Assembly (NCBI GenBank): GCA_947169285.1 | Contig: CAMVPB010000016.1 | Location: forward strand, 1-11,943 | DNA: 11,943 nt | Direction of reading: 5' to 3' | DNA from: an uncultured bacterium | Lineage (GTDB): Bacteria > Bacillota_I > Bacilli_A > RF39 > UBA660 | Part shown: in pieces, positions 1 through 11,943 of the stretch | Numbering within the stretch: position 1 is the first letter of the stretch | How the letters are laid out: every line of letters begins with the position of its first letter | Translations under genes and position numbers: made by a program | The notes under the pieces: model-generated | Seen by the model: the letters and a program-made list of their open reading frames with translations, nothing else | The model's database searches: none | What the model was told of the DNA's origin: nothing

Positions 1-11
1 TATCAAAAAAA

Positions 12-39
12 GTAAACAGTTCTTTTTCTGTCTACTTTT
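12..39. terminator. Possible weak bidirectional intrinsic terminator hairpin at the window edge
   Basis: GTAAACAG (12-19) pairs with CTGTCTAC (28-35) with one A:C mismatch and an 8-nt loop. It is flanked by an A-run (5-11) and a T-run (36-39). The stem is AU-rich, so stability is low. Confidence 0.3.
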
Positions 40-127
40 ATCTTACAACTTCATTATGACGCTGTAGCTTTTTAAATAACAGAATAGTCAATAGTAAAAG
101 AAATTTTAATATATAATACAATATAAC

Positions 128-155
128 TTGAAATAATTTATAATTATAGTATAAT
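128..155 (+). promoter_or_regulatory. Sigma-A type promoter candidate for the 180..2174 gene
   Basis: TTGAAA (128-133), a 16-nt spacer, then TATAAT (150-155), about 25 nt upstream of the ATG at 180. Such hexamers occur by chance in AT-rich DNA. Confidence 0.45.
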
Positions 156-179
156 ATAAAACCATTATCAGGGATAATT

Positions 180-2174
180 ATGGATGATTTAAAACTAATA
201 AAAAAGTATTATGGTGAAAATATGTCGCATTTATGTAGGAATTTATTTCCTACTATTTTAGAAACTCCTAGTTTATTGTTTGAAATATTTTCTAATAGCT
301 TTGATTATTCTAAATTTTTATATGATGATTTAGTCAGTAATGACTTAATAAATAGTTTTAGAGATTTTATATATAGTTTATTAGAGCACAAAATTGATAA
401 TGAAAAATCAACTATAAGTAAGAGCCCATATGAATTAATGGAAGAAGCAGGATATACTTTATATAAATGTGAAATTGAAAATGATATTCAAAGTTTTAAA
501 AAATATTATAATAATGGTGAAGAACTATGTACATTTAAAGGTGGACGGCTTGATTGGTGCTATGTGTTTTTTGCTGTTAAGAAAAATGCTGATAAAATAA
601 GAAGAGAGGATTTTAAAAATCCCCAAAGACAAGATGAATATGGTACATCAGTAATAAGTATTCAATTTAGTAAAGGAGATTCTAATTATTTATCAATTAA
701 AAACAGATATAATCATACTGTTATAAATCCTGATGCAACTTTTTCTAATGATTTAGATAAAATTATTCCTGGATTAACAGAGTCTTTTAAAAATTATTTT
801 AAATATGATATTCAAAGTAATTATAGTGGATTTGAGATTCCTGGTTATGTTAGGTCTTTTGAAGGAAAATATTATAAATATAATTATGAGAGAGGAATTT
901 ATTATTACTGTTTAAATAATGTGGTAATCGAAACTGGTAAAGTCAAAAATGAATATTTAGATAAAAATAGATATTTAGTTTTTGATTATTTTATATTAGA
1001 TATAAAAGAAAGAAAAATTGTTGATTCCCTAGGATATGGTGGATACTATGATTCATTTGCAAAAGTAATAAATGACTTAGACATTGAAAAGATTAGTATT
1101 ATCAAAAATAAAGATGGAAATAAAGATATTGTTTTTGAAATAGATGGTGGAAAAATTGTAATAACAATTAATAATCAAAATAGAATGATTAAATATTATG
1201 ATGATATTAATATAGTATTACCTGATTCTTATCTTTCAAGTATTGAATATATAACTGATGAGATAGTATTAAATAATGTTTCTAAAATAAATTATGATTT
1301 TATGGGTAGTAAAGAGCATATAATTGCTAATTTAAAAAGATTTTCAGCTCCTAATCTTGAATCAATCGGAAATATTTTTATGGAAGCAGTAGAATCAATT
1401 GATAATTTTTATACACCCAAATTAAAAATAGTGGGTGATAGGGTGCTAAGAAATTGTACTCTTAATAAATATGATTTATCTAACTTAGAAGTTGCAGGAA
1501 AATATTTTTTATCAAGTAATGAAACAAAAGAAATAAGTTTTCCAAAATTAGCGTTAGTTGGTGATGGTTTTTTACAAGAATTATATTGTGCTGAAATAAT
1601 TGATCTTCCAAATCTAAGGGAAACTGGTAAATGTTTTGTTAAAAAAGGATTATATTTGAAAAATATAAATGCTCCTAGATTAATTAGAATAGGAGAAAAA
1701 AGTTTACAAGATGTACCTTTTTTAGAAGAACTTGATTTGCAAAGTATCCAATTTATTTCCGATAATTGCTTAAAAAGTGCAATCAACTTAAAAAAAATAA
1801 ATATACCAGATGCTATTCAAATAGGAAGACTAGTTTTAAGTGATAATAGATGTTTGGAATATTTGAATGCTCCAATAGTTAGCCATATTGGTGGCTATTT
1901 TCTAGGCGGATTTAGTAAATTAAATTACATAAATTTAAATAAAGATGTTAAAACTGATTATTGTTTTATTGGATTAGATAATGGTTCTTGGATGCCATCT
2001 ATTGGACTTATAATTGGAAATGAAAGCATAGTTGATTTTATTAATAAAGCATATCAAAAATATAATGAAGATAATTCAAAATATATTACACATAGATTAT
2101 ATTCCTCTCAATTAGCAGAATCTTTGGATAAAGACATTTATGATAAACCAATTACTCTTGCAAGAACAAAATAA
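180..2174 (+). CDS. Hypothetical protein: unrecognised ~370-aa N-terminal region plus a C-terminal leucine-rich-repeat-like array
   Basis: This is a 664-codon ORF. From about nt 1290 to 1950 the protein has ~9-10 tandem units of 21-22 aa with the pattern xxFLxxxxxLxxhxhPxLxxhG. Examples are DRVLRNCTLNKYDLSNLEVAG, KYFLSSNETKEISFPKLALVG, KCFVKKGLYLKNINAPRLIRIG and DNCLKSAINLKKINIPDAIQIG. The pattern is reminiscent of bacterial BspA/LRR_5-type repeats. No N-terminal signal peptide is visible. The SD is weak (GGGA at 171-174). Confidence 0.85.
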   Translation: MDDLKLIKKYYGENMSHLCRNLFPTILETPSLLFEIFSNSFDYSKFLYDDLVSNDLINSFRDFIYSLLEHKIDNEKSTISKSPYELMEEAGYTLYKCEIENDIQSFKKYYNNGEELCTFKGGRLDWCYVFFAVKKNADKIRREDFKNPQRQDEYGTSVISIQFSKGDSNYLSIKNRYNHTVINPDATFSNDLDKIIPGLTESFKNYFKYDIQSNYSGFEIPGYVRSFEGKYYKYNYERGIYYYCLNNVVIETGKVKNEYLDKNRYLVFDYFILDIKERKIVDSLGYGGYYDSFAKVINDLDIEKISIIKNKDGNKDIVFEIDGGKIVITINNQNRMIKYYDDINIVLPDSYLSSIEYITDEIVLNNVSKINYDFMGSKEHIIANLKRFSAPNLESIGNIFMEAVESIDNFYTPKLKIVGDRVLRNCTLNKYDLSNLEVAGKYFLSSNETKEISFPKLALVGDGFLQELYCAEIIDLPNLRETGKCFVKKGLYLKNINAPRLIRIGEKSLQDVPFLEELDLQSIQFISDNCLKSAINLKKINIPDAIQIGRLVLSDNRCLEYLNAPIVSHIGGYFLGGFSKLNYINLNKDVKTDYCFIGLDNGSWMPSIGLIIGNESIVDFINKAYQKYNEDNSKYITHRLYSSQLAESLDKDIYDKPITLARTK

Positions 2175-2213
2175 TTATAATTGTAGTATATAATAATAAA
2201 GAAATTTTGAATG

Positions 2214-2242
2214 TTGACTTTGCAAAATGAGAAAAGTATGAT
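2214..2242 (+). promoter_or_regulatory. Sigma-A type promoter candidate upstream of a structured leader
   Basis: TTGACT (2214-2219), an exactly 17-nt spacer, then TATGAT (2237-2242). Confidence 0.4.
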
Positions 2243-2256
2243 AATATTAATTCAGT

Positions 2257-2272
2257 TAGTAATATATTACTA
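2257..2272. promoter_or_regulatory. Perfect 16-bp palindrome (operator or 5' stem-loop candidate)
   Basis: TAGTAATATATTACTA is its own reverse complement. It starts about 15 nt after the -10 element, so it lies at the start of the predicted transcript. Confidence 0.35.
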
Positions 2273-2288
2273 CTTATTATTTTGTGAG

Positions 2289-2394
2289 TCTTGGTTGTTC
2301 TACACAACTCAGATTCGTACCAAGAGGAAATCTGCTCGAACTTTTATAGTTTGAGCTCGATAAATGACTAATTCAGAAATGGATTAGTTTTTTT
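2289..2394 (+). promoter_or_regulatory. Candidate structured 5' leader or small RNA (class not recognised)
   Basis: Helices read by eye: TCTTGGT (2289-2295) with ACCAAGA (2319-2325); CAGATT (2310-2315) with AATCTG (2329-2334), which crosses the first helix in pseudoknot topology; GCTCGAAC (2334-2341) with GTTTGAGC (2349-2356), 8 bp including one G:U; and a terminal hairpin with a U-run. I found no match to any riboswitch consensus I can recall. Confidence 0.25.
2367..2394 (+). terminator. Weak intrinsic terminator or attenuator candidate
   Basis: ACTAAT (2367-2372) pairs with ATTAGT (2383-2388) across a 10-nt loop, followed by T-run 2389-2394. The stem is only 6 bp and AU-rich. Confidence 0.3.
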
Positions 2395-2432
2395 GTTATT
2401 ATGAAAAAACGTCCAGGAAAGGATGTGTTTCT

Positions 2433-2705
2433 ATGTTAAATATTGTTAAAGAAGAATTGCCTATTGAAGAGAGTCTAAAAAATAAAATCAATCTTATATG
2501 TGAATTTGCTCATGTGAAGCCTATATTTATTAATGGTAATATAAGAAAAATTAATAAAACCAATTTAGTTTATATTGAACCAAATAGAGTAATTGTTAAA
2601 GATAAAACTCTTCTTATATTTAATTATTCTAATGAAGTATTTATTGAAAATTTATCCAATAAATTAAAATTATCTGATTTAGAAGATTATTTGAAAAAGT
2701 GCTAG
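2433..2705 (+). CDS. Hypothetical 90-aa protein
   Basis: The ORF has AGGAAAGGA (2415-2423) 9 nt upstream of its ATG. I recognise no motifs. It sits directly upstream of the serine recombinase, so a role as a regulator or recombination directionality factor is conceivable but unsupported. Confidence 0.6.
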   Translation: MLNIVKEELPIEESLKNKINLICEFAHVKPIFINGNIRKINKTNLVYIEPNRVIVKDKTLLIFNYSNEVFIENLSNKLKLSDLEDYLKKC

Positions 2706-2709
2706 ACTA

Positions 2710-2738
2710 TTGACTTTAAAAGAAAAATTGTATATTAT
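2710..2738 (+). promoter_or_regulatory. Sigma-A type promoter candidate for the sORF and recombinase transcript
   Basis: TTGACT (2710-2715), a 17-nt spacer, then TATTAT (2733-2738), immediately after the stop codon of the 90-aa ORF. Confidence 0.45.
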
Positions 2739-2782
2739 AAATAACCATCAAAGAGAGTACCCTTAAGAAATGGAGGTACATC

Positions 2783-4748
<1,966 letters not shown>

Positions 4749-4761
4749 ATTATGAAAATAA

Positions 4762-4854
4762 TGCTCCCACAGAATTTTTAAAAAAATTGAAAACGGGAGC
4801 ATTTATTTCTTTTGAATAAAGGGATTCTTTGATTTGTAAAGCTCTGTGGGAGCA
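4762..4854. repeat. Perfect 12-bp inverted repeat pair flanking 69 bp
   Basis: TGCTCCCACAGA (4762-4773) is the exact reverse complement of TCTGTGGGAGCA (4843-4854). The GGGAGCA core also occurs at 4795-4801 and 4972-4978. Confidence 0.7.
4764..4813 (+). terminator. Possible terminator of the recombinase gene
   Basis: GCTCCC (4764-4769) pairs with GGGAGC (4795-4800). An inner AATTTTT/AAAAATT pairing may extend the stem. The T-rich tail ATTTATTTCTTTT follows at 4801-4813. The loop and internal bulges are large, so this call is uncertain. Confidence 0.3.
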
Positions 4855-4876
4855 ATTTTGCAAGTGCAAAATAAGT

Positions 4877-4926
4877 GGTGTCATAAAAATATATGTATTT
4901 CCTAGAAATATTTATATTTTGACACC
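4877..4926. promoter_or_regulatory. 50-bp imperfect palindrome (operator or serine-recombinase att-site candidate)
   Basis: The outer arms GGTGTCA (4877-4883) and TGACACC (4920-4926) are perfect complements. The inner blocks AAAA, TATA and TATTTC/GAAATA also pair, with two 1-nt offsets. The core is ATTTC-CTA-GAAAT (4897-4909). The right arm overlaps the -35 element of the promoter listed next. Confidence 0.5.
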
Positions 4927-4947
4927 TCATACTTATCCTGATATAAA
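4919..4947 (+). promoter_or_regulatory. Near-consensus sigma-A promoter with an extended -10 (distal operon promoter)
   Basis: TTGACA (4919-4924), a 17-nt spacer, then TATAAA (4942-4947). TG at 4939-4940 gives a TGnTATAAA extended -10. Confidence 0.55.
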
Positions 4948-5039
4948 AAAGTAATATTTTATGTATTCCATGGGAGCAAAAAAGTTGATTTTTAATTGTC
5001 TTATAATTCTTACAATATATGATAAACATTCAAATTTTA

Positions 5040-5068
5040 TTTACTTTTAAGTTTTTATATGATATAAT
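5040..5068 (+). promoter_or_regulatory. Second (proximal) promoter candidate
   Basis: TTTACT (5040-5045), a 17-nt spacer, then TATAAT (5063-5068), with TG at 5060-5061 giving an extended -10. It would produce a leader of about 22 nt before the ATG at 5097. Confidence 0.4.
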
Positions 5069-5096
5069 AAATGGCAATTTTGATAAGGGGTGTTTT

Positions 5097-6983
5097 ATGG
5101 GCTTGGATGCTGAAGATTTTATTATTAGTTTGCTTGCACCAGAAGAGATTTGGGGAGTAAATAAATTAGAACCATTAAAAAATTTTGGATTATATACTAG
5201 AGTAACTGATCTATGTGTATTAACTGGTGCAAAAGTTTTCGAAGGCCAGGGTCCCATAGGACTAGATGGCTGCTGGGTTTATACTACTGAAATCTGTGGA
5301 AGAAATGTAACAGCAATTTCACCAGATCAAAAAGTAACAACTGGAAACCAAAGCGATAATAGTGGAGTTATTCGTCCGATATTAAACTGTAAGCAAGACG
5401 TATTTAAAAAAATAACAAGCGGAGCATATTATATCGGAGTTGGTGTAAAAGAAGTTGAATTTGGATGCTATCCAGATTGCGCAGTAGATTGGAATTTACA
5501 GTTAGAACTTGAAAACGAGTTTAAGTGGAATGGATTAACATCATCTGGAAGACAATTTTCAAAGGCTGATTATCCGCCTGTTATATGGAAAGAATACGAA
5601 TATAAGGGATCGCAATATGTTAGAGTCGAATCAAATGCTAATACTTCAATATTTACACTATCCAATGGCGAAATATATTCAAATGGAGACTATGTGTGGT
5701 TGAAAGTTTTACCAATTAGATGGTTAGTAGATGAAGAAAGTCAAACTCTTATTTGTAAAGCCGGATTGATATCAGGTATTGCAGTTACTCCTGCTAGTTC
5801 TTCTATTTATTCATTTAGTTATTCTGATATTCAATACTTTCTCAAAATAGTGTTTTTACCTGAATTGTTAAAAAATATTTCTTTATTAGGAAACAAAGTA
5901 GTTGATTCACATCCTGAAAAGAAAGAAGAACCACTTCCAAGTAAAACAAAAAAATCAAGAAACCCATATGGATTTAGTATGAGTAATGTGAGTGAAGAAG
6001 ATATAATAAGAGGATGTATAGAAAGTAATCTATCTGTATTTTTACATGGACCATCTTCTGAAGGTAAGAGTGCAAGAGTAAAACAAATAGATCCAGACTG
6101 TGAAATTATATATCTAAGAAATGCAAGCCCAGAGAGTTTAAATGGCAAAAGCGTTTATAATCAAACAACTGGAGAAATGATAGATGTAAAACCAACATGG
6201 TTAATTAGATTAGAAGAAAAATGTAAAAAAGAACCAAATAAGAAACATATATTGTTCTTTGATGAAATAACAAATGCACTTCCTAGTATTCAAGGTATAG
6301 CATTCAATATAGTTTTAGATAAAGAAGTAAATGGAAAATGGAAATTACCAGATAATGCAAGAATAGTTGCAGCAGGAAATGAAATGAAAGATTCATTATC
6401 AGCAAATCAATTAGCAGAACCATTATTTAATAGATTTGCACATGTATATATAAAAACTACTACTGAAAGTTGGTTAAAGTGGGCAAGTGAGAATGATATA
6501 CATCCGGCAATATATTCATATATAGCATACAAAAAAGGAGAGGCTCTAAGAAGTAAGTATGACGGAAAGAAACCAAATGCAGATCCAAGAAAATGGGAGA
6601 TGGCATCAAAGATGTTATATAGTACACAAAACCCACAAATGTTAAGATCATTAATAGGAGAAGACATAACAAGAGAGTTTGTAGAGTTTTGTAACCAAAG
6701 AGTAATAACAATAGAAGATGTAGTGAATGAAAACTATACAGATAAAGATATCGAAGAATTAAACACATCGGAAAGATATGCAACAACAATGGGGTTATCA
6801 CAAGTAGATGAAACTAACTTAGAAAAAGTAAGAGAATTTGTAAGCAAGATAGGAGCAGAGTTCACATCAATGTTTGATTTATTATGGACACATAATGATG
6901 AGGCAAGATTAGAAAAGATAGCTGAATTAAATGCTTCTAATGAACAAGCAAAGATGTTAATAAAGGGGGGGAAATTAAAATGA
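5097..6983 (+). CDS. Paralogue 1: divergent ~288-aa N-terminal domain fused to a MoxR/AAA_5-like AAA+ ATPase
   Basis: I chose the start at ATG 5097, with SD AAGGGG (5085-5090) 6 nt upstream, rather than the ORF-track ATG at 5019. ATPase motifs are Walker A GPSSEGKS (6048-6071), Walker B ILFFDE (6249-6266), sensor-1-like RIVAAGNE, and LAEPLFNRF, which is analogous to the MoxR LxxxLDRF motif. A helical C-terminal region of about 170 aa follows. Confidence 0.9.
   Translation: MGLDAEDFIISLLAPEEIWGVNKLEPLKNFGLYTRVTDLCVLTGAKVFEGQGPIGLDGCWVYTTEICGRNVTAISPDQKVTTGNQSDNSGVIRPILNCKQDVFKKITSGAYYIGVGVKEVEFGCYPDCAVDWNLQLELENEFKWNGLTSSGRQFSKADYPPVIWKEYEYKGSQYVRVESNANTSIFTLSNGEIYSNGDYVWLKVLPIRWLVDEESQTLICKAGLISGIAVTPASSSIYSFSYSDIQYFLKIVFLPELLKNISLLGNKVVDSHPEKKEEPLPSKTKKSRNPYGFSMSNVSEEDIIRGCIESNLSVFLHGPSSEGKSARVKQIDPDCEIIYLRNASPESLNGKSVYNQTTGEMIDVKPTWLIRLEEKCKKEPNKKHILFFDEITNALPSIQGIAFNIVLDKEVNGKWKLPDNARIVAAGNEMKDSLSANQLAEPLFNRFAHVYIKTTTESWLKWASENDIHPAIYSYIAYKKGEALRSKYDGKKPNADPRKWEMASKMLYSTQNPQMLRSLIGEDITREFVEFCNQRVITIEDVVNENYTDKDIEELNTSERYATTMGLSQVDETNLEKVREFVSKIGAEFTSMFDLLWTHNDEARLEKIAELNASNEQAKMLIKGGKLK
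5961..6113 (+). repeat. Direct repeat copy 1 (junction and Walker A region of paralogue 1)
   Basis: 5991-6097 is identical at all 107 nt to 11821-11927. There is one mismatch at 6098 versus 11928, then 15 more identical nt up to the window end. The preceding 30 nt (5961-5990) have 7 mismatches. Confidence 0.95.
6965..6971 (+). other. G7 homopolymer: SD for paralogue 2 and a potential slippery or phase-variable site
   Basis: GGGGGGG lies within the last codons of paralogue 1 (AAG GGG GGG AAA TTA AAA TGA) and ends 8 nt upstream of the ATG at 6980. A G7 run is conspicuous in DNA this AT-rich. Confidence 0.8.
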
Positions 6984-9031
6984 AATATCCAGATGTAAGT
7001 TTATTATCTATGGATCAGATATATGATGATGATTTAAGATTTATTAAAAGATATGGGTCAAGGTGTTCTGCCACTGATTTTGCAATACTTTTAGGGATTG
7101 CTATATCATCTAATAAATTTTTTGATGATGTAGAATCACTAGAAAATAGGACGGTTGATTGGTGGATTGAATCTGATAAACCAGCATATGTGGATTCGGA
7201 TAGTGCAGACGTATTATATGGTGGGGATGGCTGGGATAATGTAACTGGAGGACGTCCGGTTGTACAGTTTTCTCAGATTTCAGATAAGTTAATATCTAAA
7301 AAATATTCTGATGGAGTTTTAGAAGTTGAATATGGTATGTATCCTCAAAGTGCAGTAAATTTTCATTTGAATAAAAAATTAGAAGAATTATATAATGCGA
7401 ATGCACTTAGCAAAGTGTTTTCAACTGAATCACTTGTAAAAACAGGTGATACTTATATTGTCGACGCTCAAGCTGGATATGATAATGAAAAGAATTTTGC
7501 TCCTGAATATCTTGAGGAGTATCAATATTTAAACTTTAAATATGTTCGTATTATTCCACATGCAGAACCAGATGGAGATATTTTGTCTAATGGGGTAACT
7601 CTTAGAGAAGGTAAACCGATTTGGGTAAAAGTTGAACCAATAACATGGTTAGTAGATGAAAATGCAGATATAGCAGTAGCTAAGAAAGTATTATTCTCTG
7701 GTGTAAGATTTTTAGATTTTCCATATAAGTATGAAAGCTTTGATAAAACACGTATAAATAAGTTTTTAAATGAATGCTTTATACGCGACATAAATCAAAG
7801 CCAAAAAAATTCTAGAGAAATTTTAATAGGTAATAGTAATAGGAATAAGTTAAGAAAAACAAACCCATATAAATTCAGTTTTGATGAAGTTACTGAAGAA
7901 AATATAATAAGAGGTATGGTAGAAAGTAATATTGCTGTGTTTTTGCATGGTAGATCAAGTGATGGTAAATCAGCTAGAGTAAAACAAATGGATCCAAATT
8001 GTGAAATTATATATTTAAGGAATGCAACACCAGAAAGTTTAAATGGTAAAAGTGTTTATAATCAAACAACTGGAGAAATGATAGATATTAAACCAACATG
8101 GTTAACTAAATTAGAAGATAAATGTGAGAAAGAACCCGATAAAATACATATATTATTCTTTGATGAACTTACTAATGCATTACCTTCAATTCAAGGCATG
8201 GCATTCAACATAGTATTAGATGGTGAAGTAAATGGTAAATGGAAGTTGCCAAAAAACGCAAGAATAGTAGCAGCTGGTAATGATTTAAATGATTCACTTG
8301 CAGCAAACCAAATGGCAGAACCATTATTCAATAGATTTGCTCATGTTTATATTAATACAACACCATCTAGCTGGTTATTATGGGCATCTACACCAACTAA
8401 TAATTATGAAATGATAGATTATAAAGAAGAAGAGTTACCATTAAAAATACATCCATCTATATATGCTTATATATCTTGTAAATCATTTGGTGGAAGGGAT
8501 GTTTTAAGAACAACATATGATGGAAAGAAGCCAAATGCAGATCCAAGAAAATGGGAGATGGCTTCAAAGGTATTATATAAAACTGGAAAACCAGAAATGT
8601 TAAGAGCATTAATAGGTGAACCATTAACAAAAGAATTTGTTGAATTTACTAAACAACAAGTCTTAACTTTAGATGATGTGTTAAAAGGAAATTATGATGA
8701 TGAAGAATTAGAAGAAATGGATACTTCTCAAAAATTTTTAATGATTGCAGTATTATCTGCAGTCGATGAAGAACATTTTGAAATAGCAAGAAATTTTATG
8801 AGTAAACTTGGAGAAGAACCAAGAGCTGTTTTTGACTCATTATGGACACATGGAGATGAAAAAAGATTAGAAAAACTTGCTGAAGTTAAAATGACAGAAG
8901 AACCAAAAATAATGTCAAAAGAATTACCGAAAAAAGAAAAAGAAAAAAGTACTCGTGACTGCTATGTAATTTATGGTAATCATGATTCTATTTATAATGA
9001 TACTTTTCATGTAAAGAAATTAAAAATATAA
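6980..9031 (+). CDS. Paralogue 2: divergent ~294-aa N-terminal domain fused to a MoxR/AAA_5-like AAA+ ATPase
   Basis: It overlaps paralogue 1 by 4 nt (ATGA, 6980-6983). ATPase motifs are Walker A GRSSDGKS (7949-7972), Walker B ILFFDE, RIVAAGND and LFNRF. From NPYKF onward it aligns with paralogue 1. It carries an insertion of about 15 aa (TPTNNYEMIDYKEEELPLK) and a longer K/E-rich C-terminal tail. Confidence 0.9.
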   Translation: MKYPDVSLLSMDQIYDDDLRFIKRYGSRCSATDFAILLGIAISSNKFFDDVESLENRTVDWWIESDKPAYVDSDSADVLYGGDGWDNVTGGRPVVQFSQISDKLISKKYSDGVLEVEYGMYPQSAVNFHLNKKLEELYNANALSKVFSTESLVKTGDTYIVDAQAGYDNEKNFAPEYLEEYQYLNFKYVRIIPHAEPDGDILSNGVTLREGKPIWVKVEPITWLVDENADIAVAKKVLFSGVRFLDFPYKYESFDKTRINKFLNECFIRDINQSQKNSREILIGNSNRNKLRKTNPYKFSFDEVTEENIIRGMVESNIAVFLHGRSSDGKSARVKQMDPNCEIIYLRNATPESLNGKSVYNQTTGEMIDIKPTWLTKLEDKCEKEPDKIHILFFDELTNALPSIQGMAFNIVLDGEVNGKWKLPKNARIVAAGNDLNDSLAANQMAEPLFNRFAHVYINTTPSSWLLWASTPTNNYEMIDYKEEELPLKIHPSIYAYISCKSFGGRDVLRTTYDGKKPNADPRKWEMASKVLYKTGKPEMLRALIGEPLTKEFVEFTKQQVLTLDDVLKGNYDDEELEEMDTSQKFLMIAVLSAVDEEHFEIARNFMSKLGEEPRAVFDSLWTHGDEKRLEKLAEVKMTEEPKIMSKELPKKEKEKSTRDCYVIYGNHDSIYNDTFHVKKLKI

Positions 9032-9047
9032 AAAGGGGAATTTAAAT

Positions 9048-9437
9048 ATGAAAGATAAAAAGGAATTATTATTCTCATATATTAAAACTAATGTTGCTCC
9101 AATATTAGTAGATTTTATATCTTCTGAAGATTTAAGAAATGTAACAATATTACCTGCTAATATCGATTCTAAAGAATTGAATGGACATTATGAAGATATA
9201 AATTTTATGCCACCATATTGGTTTAATGAATTATTAAATAAGAACAATAAAATATTAGTTATTGATAGAATCGATTCAATTGATAAAGAAGAACAATTAA
9301 AATTTGTTGAATTATTAAAATATAGAAAAATATCTACTTTTGAATTACCAAGTGATTGTGTAATTATTATTACTGCTAGTGAAATAAATAATAATACTAT
9401 AAATGAAGAGATATTTTCATTAGTGGCTAGTATATAG
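9048..9437 (+). CDS. 129-aa degenerate (P-loop-less) copy of the paralogue ATPase core
   Basis: The SD GGGG (9035-9038) precedes the start. It aligns by eye to paralogue 1 as follows. ILVDFISSEDLR corresponds to VFLHGPSSEGKS, so the Walker A Gly and Lys are lost. DSKELNG corresponds to SPESLNG. PPYWFNELLNK corresponds to KPTWLIRLEEK. KILVIDRIDS corresponds to HILFFDEITN, so Walker B DE becomes DR. CVIIITASE corresponds to ARIVAAGNE. EEIFSLVA corresponds to EPLFNRFA, so the Arg is lost. Confidence 0.8.
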   Translation: MKDKKELLFSYIKTNVAPILVDFISSEDLRNVTILPANIDSKELNGHYEDINFMPPYWFNELLNKNNKILVIDRIDSIDKEEQLKFVELLKYRKISTFELPSDCVIIITASEINNNTINEEIFSLVASI

Positions 9438-9444
9438 GTGAGTT

Positions 9445-10917
9445 ATGAAATACGATATAGAAGCTTTAAAAAGAAAAATGTTAGTTAAATATCCATTCTT
9501 TGGAAGTGTTGTAGCAAATGTGGAATATAAAGAAAAAAATGATATAGAAACAGCCGCAACAGATGGAGAAGTTATTTATTACAACACAGATTTTTTACAA
9601 TCATTAAGTGTTGATGAACAGACTTTTGTTTTTGCGCATGAAGTGTGTCATATTGCTTTTAATCATATTTTAAGAAGTGAAGGAAAAAATCATAAATTAT
9701 GGAATATCGCAACTGATGGTGTTATAAATCAATTTTTAAAAAAGGATGGATTATCAATTCCACAAGGTGGAGTTGATATACCAGAAGCAATTAATTATGA
9801 TGCTGAGAAACTATATGAAAAATTATTAAAAGAACATCAACAAAATCAACAAAATAATCAATCTAGTAATCAAAATAGTAGTAATAATAACCAAGGCAGT
9901 TCTTCTAGTCAAAGTACAAGTGAGAACAATTCGCAAAGTCAACAATCTTCTAGTAGTTCAAATGAATCCAATAATAATTCAAACGATTCTAAAGAAAATT
10001 CACAAAGCAAAGATAGAGAAGGATCTAGTCAATCAAAAGAAGAAAACAAAGAGAAAAATGCTGGGCATGATAGTCATAGCATGTGGGATGATGCTGTAAA
10101 GAGAAGCAAAGAAAAACAAAAAAAATCTAAAGAAAGCAAAGATTCGAAGAAAAACAATGATAATTCTAAAGAATCAAAAGCAAAATCAGAAATTGAGAAG
10201 AAACAAGAGGAACTTGAAAAAATGGGTGAAAAAGATGCTTTTGATAAAAACCGTGAGGAAAAGAAAAAAGAATTAGAAAGACTAAAAGAAGAGTTATCTA
10301 GAAAAGCATCTCAAGCAGGAACTACAAGTAATGGTAATGTTAGAGAAGTTGGTAATATTGGTAATGCTAAACCATTAATTGATTGGAGATATGTTTTAAA
10401 AGAAACAATAAAATATGATGTTGATTGGTCTTATAGGAATGCAATGGTAGAAGATGGTGTTGTAATGGCTAATCTTGAAGAAATACCTATGCCTGAAACT
10501 GAAATAGTTTTAGATACTAGTGAATCTGTTAGTGTAACATTATTAAAAAACTTCTTAAAAGAATGTAAAAATATATTAAAGCATTCAAAATTAAAAGTTG
10601 GATGTTTTGATACAGAGTTCTATGGATTTACAGAAATAAGAACAGAAGAAGATATAGATAACATGAGATTTGAGGGAAATGGTGGTACTAATTTTAATAC
10701 TGCTGTTAACGCTTTTTCAAATCGTGTTGAAAATAAAATAATATTTACAGATGGTTACGCACCAATGCCAAAAAAAGCTATAGATGCAGTATGGCTTGTG
10801 TATGGTGATCGCAAAATACAACCACCTGGTGGTAAAGTGATTTATATCACTAGTGAGCAATTAAATAAACTTTATTCATTTAAAGATGATATTAAAAAAT
10901 TAACAAGGAAATTATAA
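9445..10917 (+). CDS. HExxH metallopeptidase-like N-domain, ~160-aa low-complexity linker, and C-terminal VWA domain with MIDAS
   Basis: HEVCH lies at nt 9637-9651 in the context FVFAHEVCHIAFNHI. An S/N/Q-rich then K/E-rich linker spans about nt 9835-10315. The MIDAS DxSxS motif is DTSES at 10513-10527, followed by GGTNF and IIFTDGY. The architecture matches what I recall as the Pfam DUF2201_N plus VWA-like DUF2201 family, which is typically encoded beside AAA_5 ATPases. This needs HMM confirmation. Confidence 0.9.
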   Translation: MKYDIEALKRKMLVKYPFFGSVVANVEYKEKNDIETAATDGEVIYYNTDFLQSLSVDEQTFVFAHEVCHIAFNHILRSEGKNHKLWNIATDGVINQFLKKDGLSIPQGGVDIPEAINYDAEKLYEKLLKEHQQNQQNNQSSNQNSSNNNQGSSSSQSTSENNSQSQQSSSSSNESNNNSNDSKENSQSKDREGSSQSKEENKEKNAGHDSHSMWDDAVKRSKEKQKKSKESKDSKKNNDNSKESKAKSEIEKKQEELEKMGEKDAFDKNREEKKKELERLKEELSRKASQAGTTSNGNVREVGNIGNAKPLIDWRYVLKETIKYDVDWSYRNAMVEDGVVMANLEEIPMPETEIVLDTSESVSVTLLKNFLKECKNILKHSKLKVGCFDTEFYGFTEIRTEEDIDNMRFEGNGGTNFNTAVNAFSNRVENKIIFTDGYAPMPKKAIDAVWLVYGDRKIQPPGGKVIYITSEQLNKLYSFKDDIKKLTRKL

Positions 10918-10929
10918 GGGGAGGAAAAT

Positions 10930-11943
10930 ATGAGTATTACAATTAGAGAAGTTACATTACCAACAAAAGAACAAGTTTTTAAATCCGGTTTAGATATTTT
11001 TATGACTGGAAAAGACAGAATATGTTTATTGTCTGATTTTGCAATACTAATGGGTTCATGTACTTCTGAAAATCCAAATTTCTTTCCTATTAACAGTAAA
11101 ATAAATTGGTGGTATTGTTTATCAGAAAATGGAAATCGTTTTGGAAAGGTTCGTACAAGTGGTTCATACAGTACTACTTCATGTGATAAATCAAATGGTG
11201 GGATTAGACCTGTTTTAAAACTAAATTCACCTGTAATGCCTAATGAAGGTTATATTAATTCAGAGGGGTTAGTAGAAGTAGAATTTGGTGAATATCCACA
11301 ATTTGCTGTTGATCCATTCTTTGGTAATACTCTTTCAGAACAACTTATGCATGGTCATTTAAAAGAGACTGGTAAAACATATACTCAAAATGCTATTTTT
11401 TCTGTAAAGGGATTAAATGCATTTGATCCAAAAGTGATAAAAGAATATGAATATAAAGGTCATAAATACGTGGTAGCAATGTCAAATACGTTTAATGATG
11501 AGCAAAAACTATCAAATGGTATGACTGCTAAATGTGGCAGCTTACATTGGATAGAAGTTGCTCCGATAAAATGGATATATGACAGGAAGTCAATGGCATT
11601 GATAAGTAAAATTGCTCTTGCTTCTGGAATTAGGCCTACTGATTCTAATGGAAAGTATCATGGATATTTTAAAACTACCGAGATGTATAGTTTCTTAAAT
11701 GACTATTTTCTTAAAGAGATTGTCCATAATAAGAACAACTTAATAGAAAAGCAAGAAAGTATATCGCAGAATTCTTTTAATAGAAGAAGAAATCCATATG
11801 GATTTAACATAAACAATGTAAGTGAAGAAGATATAATAAGAGGATGTATAGAAAGTAATCTATCTGTATTTTTACATGGACCATCTTCTGAAGGTAAGAG
11901 TGCAAGAGTAAAACAAATAGATCCAGAATGTGAAATTATATAT
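10930..11943 (+). CDS. Paralogue 3 (5' partial, runs off the window): divergent ~287-aa N-terminal domain fused to the same ATPase module
   Basis: It is absent from the ORF track because it has no stop codon. I translated it by hand as 338 open codons from ATG 10930, with SD GGGGAGG (10918-10924) 5 nt upstream. The sequence runs MSITIREV...SDFAILMG...NWWYCLSE...GGIRPVL...VEFGEYPQFAV...KEYEYKG...PIKWIYD...NPYGFNINNVSEEDIIRGCIESNLSVFLHGPSSEGKSARVKQIDPECEIIY. Confidence 0.85.
   Translation, partial: MSITIREVTLPTKEQVFKSGLDIFMTGKDRICLLSDFAILMGSCTSENPNFFPINSKINWWYCLSENGNRFGKVRTSGSYSTTSCDKSNGGIRPVLKLNSPVMPNEGYINSEGLVEVEFGEYPQFAVDPFFGNTLSEQLMHGHLKETGKTYTQNAIFSVKGLNAFDPKVIKEYEYKGHKYVVAMSNTFNDEQKLSNGMTAKCGSLHWIEVAPIKWIYDRKSMALISKIALASGIRPTDSNGKYHGYFKTTEMYSFLNDYFLKEIVHNKNNLIEKQESISQNSFNRRRNPYGFNINNVSEEDIIRGCIESNLSVFLHGPSSEGKSARVKQIDPECEIIY
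11791..11943 (+). repeat. Direct repeat copy 2 (junction and Walker A region of paralogue 3)
   Basis: It lies at an offset of exactly 5830 nt from copy 1; see copy 1 for details. Its extent beyond 11943 is unknown. Confidence 0.95.

Follow-up and report, generated by a model that had tools for sequence, protein, structure and literature searches.

The N-terminal heads of MoxR-type ATPases from uncultured gut bacteria as permuted DUF6273-like domains and probable specificity modules

We analysed a stretch of 11,943 nucleotides from an uncultured bacterium of the RF39 lineage (contig CAMVPB010000016.1, positions 1 to 11,943, hereafter the window). It encodes three paralogous proteins, each composed of an N-terminal head and an ATPase. 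Each head is a single domain of about 270 amino acids that is homologous to DUF6273 (PF19789), and profile comparisons support a chain order that is circularly permuted relative to this family. Taken as a whole, our observations are best, and in our view probably correctly, explained by a permuted DUF6273 head that acts as the specificity module of a machine made of a MoxR-type ATPase and a protein combining a zincin-like peptidase with a von Willebrand factor A (vWA) domain; its function we infer.

A preliminary description of the window had listed motifs common to the three heads, and the translations confirmed them in the same order in all three copies. Most of the individual patterns held as well, except that paralogue 2 contains GGRPVV instead of G[GV]IRP[VI]L and paralogue 1 contains FLKIVF instead of FLN..F. 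D[FL][AC][IV]L.G is found at residues 33-44, W or WW at about residue 60, RP[VI][LV] at 92-96 and VE[FY]G.YP[QD] at 116-127, followed by EY[EQ]Y...[KQ]YV, LSNG, W..V.PI.W..D, SG[IV] and FL[NK]..F. The heads are highly divergent yet related, as had been described, with 27-32% identity and 50 invariant columns. Since BLASTP aligned head 1 with head 3 at E 3e-27 and with head 2 at E 8e-23, the common skeleton is, at the sequence level, homology and not chance.

The boundaries of the heads were also correctly placed. DNA homology among the paralogues (nucleotide repeat family D1) begins abruptly at positions 5957, 7858 and 11787, while the heads themselves are without DNA similarity except for one 39-nt motif (5697-5735 and 7622-7660). 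Past the junction, the ATPases of paralogues 1 and 2 are about 68-70% identical, those of paralogues 1 and 3 share 92% of amino acids and 95% of nucleotides (first 51 amino acids), and nucleotide identity with paralogue 2 is 76-81%. Head and ATPase identities between paralogues are 30% versus 68% in the window, 43% versus 98% in a second locus (L034) and 41-55% versus 79-98% in a third (L009), and across the loci compared the heads always diverge more than the ATPases of the same locus. Because the DNA junction is abrupt and the heads are far more divergent, the sequences point to cassette-like exchange of heads, to concerted evolution or gene conversion of the ATPases, or to both.

To which family do the heads belong? 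The canonical DUF6273 order as given in the preliminary description (FGxYxQ, IEWxVL, WLNxxF, WWLRS, VRPAL) was verified on 119 full-length PF19789 domains. These came from a search with a bait sequence of our own composition, which retrieved 4,228 proteins; 120 were listed, all of them assigned to PF19789 in precomputed Pfam data. Their consensus reads FG.YEQD, IEWLVL, ALVISK, LRKWLNN.F, VFLLS..E, YA..G, WWWLRSPG and AVRPALW. The blocks of the heads do not follow this order but run vFLLS-like, DFAIL.G, WW, RP.L, FG.YP, PI.W and FLN..F. In Pfam scans, residues 225-276 of head 3 matched PF19789 positions 7-62 with 21.8 bits, the best score of a native head and below the gathering threshold of 23.5 bits. 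When the halves were scanned separately, residues 7-99 matched positions 92-171 with 13.2 bits. An artificially permuted head 3, with the C-terminal part placed before the N-terminal part, matched positions 7-171 of 172 in a single stretch with 23.7 bits. The relative P0012 gave a corresponding picture, with native residues 10-101 on positions 87-169 and permuted residues 111-261 on positions 5-169. For another relative, P0015, a precomputed match to PF19789.7 exists, yet none was obtained with the PF19789.6 copy used here.

Since the Pfam scores were marginal, we built profiles and aligned 223 head domains with the 119 canonical domains (hhalign). In its native order, the head profile gave out-of-order matches: columns 25-93 aligned to canonical columns 129-191 (P 1.2e-8, probability 95.6%) and columns 209-267 to 23-82 (P 6e-5). 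Columns 115-134 (EVEYGEYPQ) aligned to 7-26 (FG.YEQD) with P 0.075. After permutation of its columns, the profile yielded one colinear alignment of 140 columns that covered canonical columns 23-191 of 197 (P 8.6e-12, probability 97.5%). This alignment was obtained wherever between profile columns 104 and 209 the split was placed and was lost with splits outside this range, and nine control profiles (eight column-shuffled, one reversed) gave P values of 0.05-0.63. Alignment by hidden Markov models, proposed earlier as a check, is thus colinear only after permuting. At the superfamily level, the sequence blocks of head and DUF6273 are homologous as judged from these profiles. The preliminary description had taken the leading position of the WW and RP half as a sign of circular permutation, which is supported by four independent lines: the Pfam coordinates, the hhalign results with their controls, the Foldseek neighbours and the position of the variable repeat (see below). 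Both orders occur as single-copy proteins, the canonical one in P0211 (209 amino acids) and that of the heads in P0006, P0007 and P0010 (283-299 amino acids). Therefore, we consider this a genuine circular permutation between two families and not an artefact of repeat phasing.

A head begins with the canonical 'vFLLS..E / YA..G / WWLRS / VRPAL' half. A linker of about 20 residues and the canonical N-terminal 'FG.Y.Q' hairpin come next, followed by a beta-rich insert of about 80 residues (TGKTYT, EYEYKGKKYV, LSNG) and by 'PI.W.V.D ... aLiSK ... FLN..F' at the end. Thus, the blocks FG.Y.Q, (I/P)xW.V(L/D), aLLlSK, (W/F)LN..F, vFLLS..E, YA..G, WW and G..RP(A/V)L are common to both families, as are a hypervariable stretch between WW and RP and the use as targets of diversity-generating retroelements (DGRs). 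The heads differ in that they start with the canonical C-terminal half and carry the extra insert between FG.YPQ and PI.W. In addition, they are mostly cytoplasmic and fused to AAA+ proteins. A crude hydrophobicity scan found N-terminal transmembrane-like or signal-like segments in 45 of the 120 canonical proteins versus 7 of 209 head proteins and none in the proteins of the window, in line with the earlier claims that DUF6273 is often found on secreted or surface proteins and that the heads lack a signal peptide. In the literature, DUF6273 is described as a ligand-binding domain whose fold is C-type-lectin (CLec)-like and as a DGR target with the variable repeat (VR) at its C-terminal end. 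When the structural model of the head was compared with viral structures (Foldseek against BFVD), ranks 2-4 were each a 'DUF6273 domain-containing protein' from Siphoviridae metagenomes (E 0.045-0.097). Rank 2 was a compact partial match (80 columns, root-mean-square deviation 4.4, probability 0.99); ranks 3 and 4 extended over 264 and 303 columns and were of poor quality (root-mean-square deviation >20, low probability).

The conservation mapping suggested earlier as a way to find a variable surface was run on the 223 heads. Column entropy peaks between WW and G.RP, where columns 71-95 vary most and the entropy of columns 80-92 comes close to its maximum, broken only by a conserved glycine. 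We then looked for relatives in one-genome-per-species contigs with an alignment of eight sequences. This search revealed 275 stretches encoding relatives, of which 75 loci were kept. In 12 of the 75 genome loci and in one viral contig, the head-ATPase gene has an open reading frame (ORF) of 340-400 amino acids for a reverse transcriptase (RT) directly upstream, and Pfam confirmed RVT_1 (E 5e-18 to 9e-14). A template repeat (TR) of 48-103 nt is located just upstream of the RT gene. Its copy in the head, the VR, occupies roughly residues 67-105, with ...G(A/V)VRPAL at its end. Clear TR/VR pairs were found in 10 of the 12 loci, nine of them by a script with strict mismatch scoring (L010, L011, L012, L016, L028, L040, L046, L049, L050), the tenth being L076. 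When each distinct TR/VR pair of the nine scripted loci is taken once, TR adenines, which make up 30% of the TR bases, account for 91 of 102 mismatches (binomial P 7e-36); in L076, they account for 11 of 12. Alignments between paralogues were discarded as unrelated to DGRs. Three metagenome-assembled genomes (MAGs; L010, L011 and L012) carry an identical TR and three different VRs; in L012, the TR is located at 6581-6680, the RT gene at 6893-7912 and the VR at 8215-8314. The 1,929-nt genes of L010 and L011 differ at 25 nucleotides, 12 of which belong to the 100-nt VR. L013 and L017 contain an RT-like ORF, and a search for TR/VR pairs found none there. Some of the relatives thus have a head that is a genuine target of a DGR. 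Furthermore, the permutation gains independent support, because the loop that is diversified corresponds in the alignment to the VR region at the C-terminal end of canonical DUF6273.

Several observations stand beside this result. The RT-like ORF of L013 resembles a fragment of a cytosine methyltransferase fused to a 5'-truncated RT, and L085 also has an RT upstream of a head-ATPase gene. L050 (4329-13797) holds four head-ATPase copies with 100% identical heads and 98-100% identical ATPases, which either were amplified very recently or are an artefact of the assembly, and the TR of the adjoining DGR differs identically from all four VRs. In the window, no GC-rich relic resembling an initiation of mutagenic homing sequence was found; the segments equivalent to the VR have a GC content of 0.32-0.44 and no intact GC-rich end motif. 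We infer that diversity in the window comes from its three paralogues, with heads exchanged as cassettes on near-identical ATPases, and not from a DGR.

The heads form a large family of their own, for which Pfam (2025 copy), NCBIfam and PHROGs have no model: searches of the heads against these libraries and PADLOC returned no family beyond the weak DUF6273 matches. While a word-indexed search found 10 relatives and a search with a profile 68, an exhaustive profile search recovered 2,887 representatives at 50% identity with E <= 1e-3, among them 1,025 with E <= 1e-30. The best 150 of the 2,887 are colinear in the order of the head itself, and nearly all cover the full domain. A head followed by an AAA+ ATPase (about 600-650 amino acids) is the commonest architecture among the closest relatives. 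Others are standalone heads of about 280-330 amino acids, tandem heads (two heads with DUF4116 repeats in P0011, three heads within 1,005 amino acids in P0073), heads preceded by ankyrin repeats (P0008, P0030) and heads with a coiled-coil tail behind them. Heads without an ATPase are also present in L007 (5542-9242), a chromosomal locus of Bacilli with four head-profile matches, three of them in consecutive genes (392, 397 and 413 amino acids), and in L008. The possibility that the heads are a well-characterised enzyme domain, named at the outset as an observation that would speak against the DUF6273 assignment, was rejected, as no such match was found in any library.

That each head is fused to an ATPase was confirmed: a MoxR-type AAA+ core with intact Walker motifs (GPSSEGKS, ILFFDE) lies downstream of heads 1 and 2, and the start of an AAA+ ATPase, cut by the window end, downstream of head 3. 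The AlphaFold2 model of full-length paralogue 1 (pLDDT 79.6, pTM 0.50) consists of two well-modelled parts and a disordered linker (residues 263-286). In a Foldseek search of the Protein Data Bank (PDB) with this model, NorQ chains from NorQ-NorD complexes were the best match and took 6 of the top 16 ranks, interleaved with, then followed by, MCM subunits, the MoxR-family structure 2r44, McrB and dynein AAA modules. The Pfam family AAA_5 is sub-threshold in the window (18.8 versus 22 bits), whereas 15 relatives reach E <= 0.01, the best of them 1.8e-12. In addition, tblastn matches of the ATPase part are annotated as MoxR or AAA ATPases. The protein thus is an AAA+ ATPase of MoxR class within the helix-2-insert clade.

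Two further proteins accompany it. The small protein 's' aligned to the ATPase core over 123 columns when 61 's' proteins were compared with 96 ATPase domains (hhalign, P 2.2e-6) and is, by this profile match, a degenerate paralogue of the alpha/beta core of the ATPase. The second, V, combines a zincin motif (HEVCH) with an intact metal ion-dependent adhesion site (MIDAS, DTSES) in its vWA domain; it adjoins the ATPase, as in known MoxR-vWA pairs, and is the predicted partner of the ATPases. Between its zincin and vWA parts, at about residues 125-290, the V protein of the window (DUF2201) has a low-complexity insert of about 165 residues rich in Q, N, S, K and E, which accounts for spurious matches to TolA and tail fibres. 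The PHROG family that it matches, phrog_1314, is labelled 'HNH endonuclease'; as the matching protein is a zincin peptidase with a vWA domain according to Pfam, the family is probably mislabelled.

The 75 loci belong mostly to MAGs of uncultured gut 'Bacilli', 'Tenericutes' and Clostridia, with Clostridium sp. CAG:417, Coprobacillus sp. CAG:605, Candidatus Faecisoma and Zhenpiania hominis among the named hosts. Nearly everywhere the module is laid out as head-ATPase, 's' and V, with V adjoining in 71 and 's' in 57 of the loci. Counted as whole ORFs, there is one head-ATPase gene in 63 loci, two in nine, three in one and four in one. On a chromosomal 640-kb contig (L009), five tandem copies lie between greA and tig. 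In the window, a serine recombinase gene and an inverted repeat are located next to paralogue 1, and GCA_016648615.1 shows a near-identical recombinase and paralogue-1 layout without paralogue 2; the module may for this reason be carried on an integrative element. NCBIfam has no system-level name for the module.

What could such a module do? Most likely, the head is the part that recognises targets in a cytoplasmic machine composed of ATPase and protease. As a specificity module, it would bind a cytoplasmic ligand through its variable loop, most likely a protein and possibly one from an invader. The MoxR-type ring would dock onto the vWA domain, as NorQ does onto NorD, and ATP would be used to remodel the bound target or present it to the zincin peptidase, or else to switch the peptidase on. 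The mini-AAA protein 's' may cap or regulate the ring, and several paralogous heads, or a DGR, would widen the recognition repertoire. A more specific version is that the module represents a compact cytoplasmic immune-like system, in which hypervariable permuted receptors on a MoxR motor pass proteins of invading phages or mobile genetic elements to the vWA-tethered zincin, or activate it. We put this forward tentatively, as possible but rather doubtful. No firmer is the suggestion that some genomes would diversify the receptor repertoire of such a system through a DGR and others through arrays of paralogous heads that have been swapped.

Alternatively, the module might be a chaperone-protease for assembly or maturation of a mobile element or phage, with heads adapted to the structural proteins of the element itself. 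The ATPase and the vWA-peptidase match phrog_1297 and phrog_1314, a related ATPase is present in 730 phage records, and an assembly role has been proposed for the MoxR protein and the metallopeptidase-vWA protein of jumbo phages (PMC7824862). Moreover, integrases or recombinases adjoin the module in the window and in L001-L003. However, no record of a cultured phage or of a plasmid covers the head, as tblastn matches there are confined to the ATPase part, and a megablast search of the locus against phages gave no match. Among 2.9 million viral contigs, one encodes the head-ATPase fusion, compared to 275 genome-contig matches. The five paralogues of L009 are chromosomal, and hypermutation by DGRs together with arrays of divergent heads suits changing targets better than fixed substrates of the element's own. 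An assembly role is thus unlikely in our view.

With regard to the domain itself, a head could consist of two juxtaposed half-domains from a tandem DUF6273 array that fold separately or need a partner. Canonical DUF6273 does occur in tandem (1.5 copies in P0210), as do heads (P0011 and P0073), and the distance from RP.L to FG.Y is 22 residues in head 3 versus 21 across the tandem junction of P0210. This would make the heads assemblies of halves, but AlphaFold2 modelled head 3 as one confident compact unit (pLDDT 85.9, pTM 0.85), standalone single-copy heads of about 280-320 amino acids are common, and the boundaries of the head are sharply conserved in more than 200 sequences. We therefore judge separate half-domains to be very unlikely. 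Because the linker lengths match, a register shift in a tandem DUF6273 array is instead the likely origin of the permutation. The 'half-repeat rearrangement' of the preliminary description is best taken in this sense, and less well as a competitor of permutation.

Other points weigh against a permuted DUF6273 head with the function proposed here. All matches of single sequences to PF19789 are marginal (13-24 bits compared to the cut-off of 23.5), heads 1 and 2 have no Pfam match at all, and a sub-threshold DUF6273 match was found in only 7 of 67 family members, with no other Pfam family covering the head. The set behind the canonical profile is narrow (46-82% identity) and was fetched with the bait of our own composition, and it offers no counterpart to the insert of about 80 residues. 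A Foldseek search of the PDB with the head model gave no match (best E 0.28), which is expected if a permuted topology meets an order-dependent aligner; searches of PDB sequences with the head profile and the canonical DUF6273 profile returned only spurious matches (hemopexin-like repeats, nanobodies). The presumed C-type-lectin fold of the head is derived from its DUF6273 homology and from the literature. The window contains neither an RT gene nor a TR/VR pair, and DGR evidence reaches its heads by homology only. PADLOC finds no known defence system, and the position of L009 between greA and tig is also compatible with a housekeeping role. That the likeness to DUF6273 is nevertheless a chance or convergent recurrence of motifs (WW, RP, FG.Y, W..L) on an unrelated fold, as the sparse Pfam matches and the empty PDB search would allow, is barely credible given profile-profile P values of 1e-8 in native and 9e-12 in permuted order versus at least 0.05 in all nine controls, DUF6273 proteins as the three best named BFVD neighbours, and a DGR VR that falls into the segment aligned to the canonical VR region.

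We compared the permuted head and its module with known systems. Pairs of a MoxR protein and a metallopeptidase-vWA protein have been described in jumbo phages (PMC7824862). The module resembles MoxR/vWA pairs such as NorQ-NorD, CbbQ-CbbO and the jumbo-phage pair in that NorQ is the best fold match of the ATPase, and the jumbo-phage pair also in the adjacent vWA protein with an intact MIDAS and an N-terminal zincin. It differs by the variable lectin-like head at the N-terminus of the ATPase, by one to five paralogues per locus and by the extra degenerate AAA+ mini-protein. Closer in logic are the vWA-MoxR-VMAP ternary systems (Kaur et al. 2020; Dore et al. 2023), which likewise bring together a MoxR ATPase, a vWA domain, a peptidase and a hypervariable CLec-type domain, with sensing followed by ATP-dependent activation of an effector as the proposed mode of action. 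In such MoxR-vWA conflict systems, DGR-diversified CLec domains have been proposed as intracellular 'antigen sensors' (bioRxiv 10.1101/2023.09.22.558884; PMC7159879). There, the CLec domain has the canonical order, sits on the vWA or NACHT protein and carries a C-terminal VR, and VMAP is the defining component, whereas here the MoxR ATPase itself carries the CLec-like domain, in permuted order, and the vWA protein contributes the peptidase, a zincin. Among the proteins of the window, to which no dedicated VMAP model was applied, none was seen to be a VMAP, and the third conserved gene encodes the degenerate AAA+ mini-protein. The hosts differ as well: small-genome gut Bacilli and Clostridia here, multicellular cyanobacteria or Chromatiales there.

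According to DGR surveys, VRs are overwhelmingly C-terminal and N-terminal VRs are rare. Like other DGR targets, the heads of the DGR-bearing relatives have a variable ligand-binding loop that is diversified at TR adenines, and their VR ends at a conserved GC-rich segment coding for ...VRPAL. Unlike them, they carry the VR about 70-105 residues from the N-terminus of a cytoplasmic ATPase of 600-650 amino acids, where other targets are surface or tail proteins with a C-terminal VR; the head copies of the window itself are not linked to a DGR. The nearest prior observation to DGR-targeted ATPase heads is that of Wu et al., who reported, from the Candidate Phyla Radiation, DGR targets that have Midasin-like AAA motifs and whose VRs are unclassified, and left fold and VR position unclassified. 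Our literature search found no paper on a permuted DUF6273 or CLec domain, on this head family or on a DGR-targeted head of a MoxR-type ATPase.

The features of the window are compiled in Table 1. All long ORFs are on the forward strand, and the GC content is 21-32%. Head 1 matches the head-family profile over its full length, and a near-identical protein (P0032) begins at the same methionine. A full-length orthologue of paralogue 3 is P0024 (624 amino acids); for paralogue 2, an exact-protein look-up found no record. The protein with leucine-rich repeats (LRRs) at the left end of the window seemingly has no relation to the head-ATPase module.

Table 1. Genes, domains and repeats in the window (aa, amino acids; nt, nucleotides).
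Feature	Positions	Strand	Remarks
BspA-type LRR protein (LRR_5), 664 aa	180-2174	+	without signal peptide by crude scan
90-aa ORF	between LRR gene and recombinase gene	+	
Large serine recombinase (Resolvase, Recombinase and Zn-ribbon domains; phrog_95 integrase)	2895-4748	+	directly upstream of paralogue 1
27-nt inverted repeat	4757-4783 and 4833-4859		downstream of serine recombinase gene
Paralogue 1 gene (head and ATPase)	5097-6983	+	
Paralogue 1 head, 288 aa, permuted DUF6273-like	5097-5960	+	most divergent copy (DLCVLTG, single W, FLKIVF)
Paralogue 1 W...RPIL segment	5271-5384	+	counterpart of the DGR VR of relatives and of the C-terminal VR region of canonical DUF6273; GC 0.37
Paralogue 1 MoxR-type AAA+ ATPase	5961-6983	+	Walker A 6048-6071, Walker B 6249-6266; phrog_1297, E 3e-53
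Paralogue 2 gene	6980-9031	+	
Paralogue 2 head, 294 aa	6980-7861	+	
Paralogue 2 WW...RPVV segment	7157-7264	+	VR-equivalent loop
Paralogue 2 AAA+ ATPase	7862-9031	+	longer C-terminal tail; Walker A 7949-7972, Walker B 8150-8167
Protein 's', 129 aa, degenerate AAA+ core	9048-9437	+	Walker A lost; LVIDR at 9255-9269 (DR replaces Walker B DE)
Zincin-like metallopeptidase and vWA protein (DUF2201_N and DUF2201)	9445-10917	+	HEVCH 9637-9651; MIDAS DTSES 10513-10527; Pfam E 1e-36 and 1e-12; phrog_1314
Paralogue 3 head, 287 aa	10930-11790	+	nearest to family consensus; sole head of the window with Pfam DUF6273 matches
Paralogue 3 residues 7-99	10948-11226	+	block matching DUF6273 C-terminal half (profile 92-171)
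Paralogue 3 WW...RPVL segment	11104-11217	+	VR-equivalent loop
Paralogue 3 residues 225-276	11602-11757	+	block matching DUF6273 N-terminal part (profile 7-62)
Paralogue 3 AAA+ ATPase, start	11791-11943	+	cut by window end; 95% nt identical to paralogue 1

Nearly all descriptions of DGR variable domains concern C-type-lectin folds at the C-terminus of surface or tail proteins. In the head family, the same scaffold has a permuted order, its hypervariable loop lies close to the N-terminus, and it is joined to a cytoplasmic AAA+ motor. Because of the permuted chain order and the position of the VR near the N-terminus, domain and DGR-target searches that depend on order or are anchored at the C-terminus would miss such proteins. 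The family supplies the head in a three-gene module that is widespread among uncultured Bacilli and Clostridia of the human and animal gut. Consisting of the head-ATPase, the mini-AAA protein, the vWA-zincin protein and an optional DGR, this small module would be tractable for testing the idea of DGR-diversified intracellular antigen sensors, so far based on large multi-domain proteins of bacteria that are hard to grow. If the immune-like reading were true, small-genome gut Bacilli would have in this module an analogue of adaptive recognition that targets proteins.

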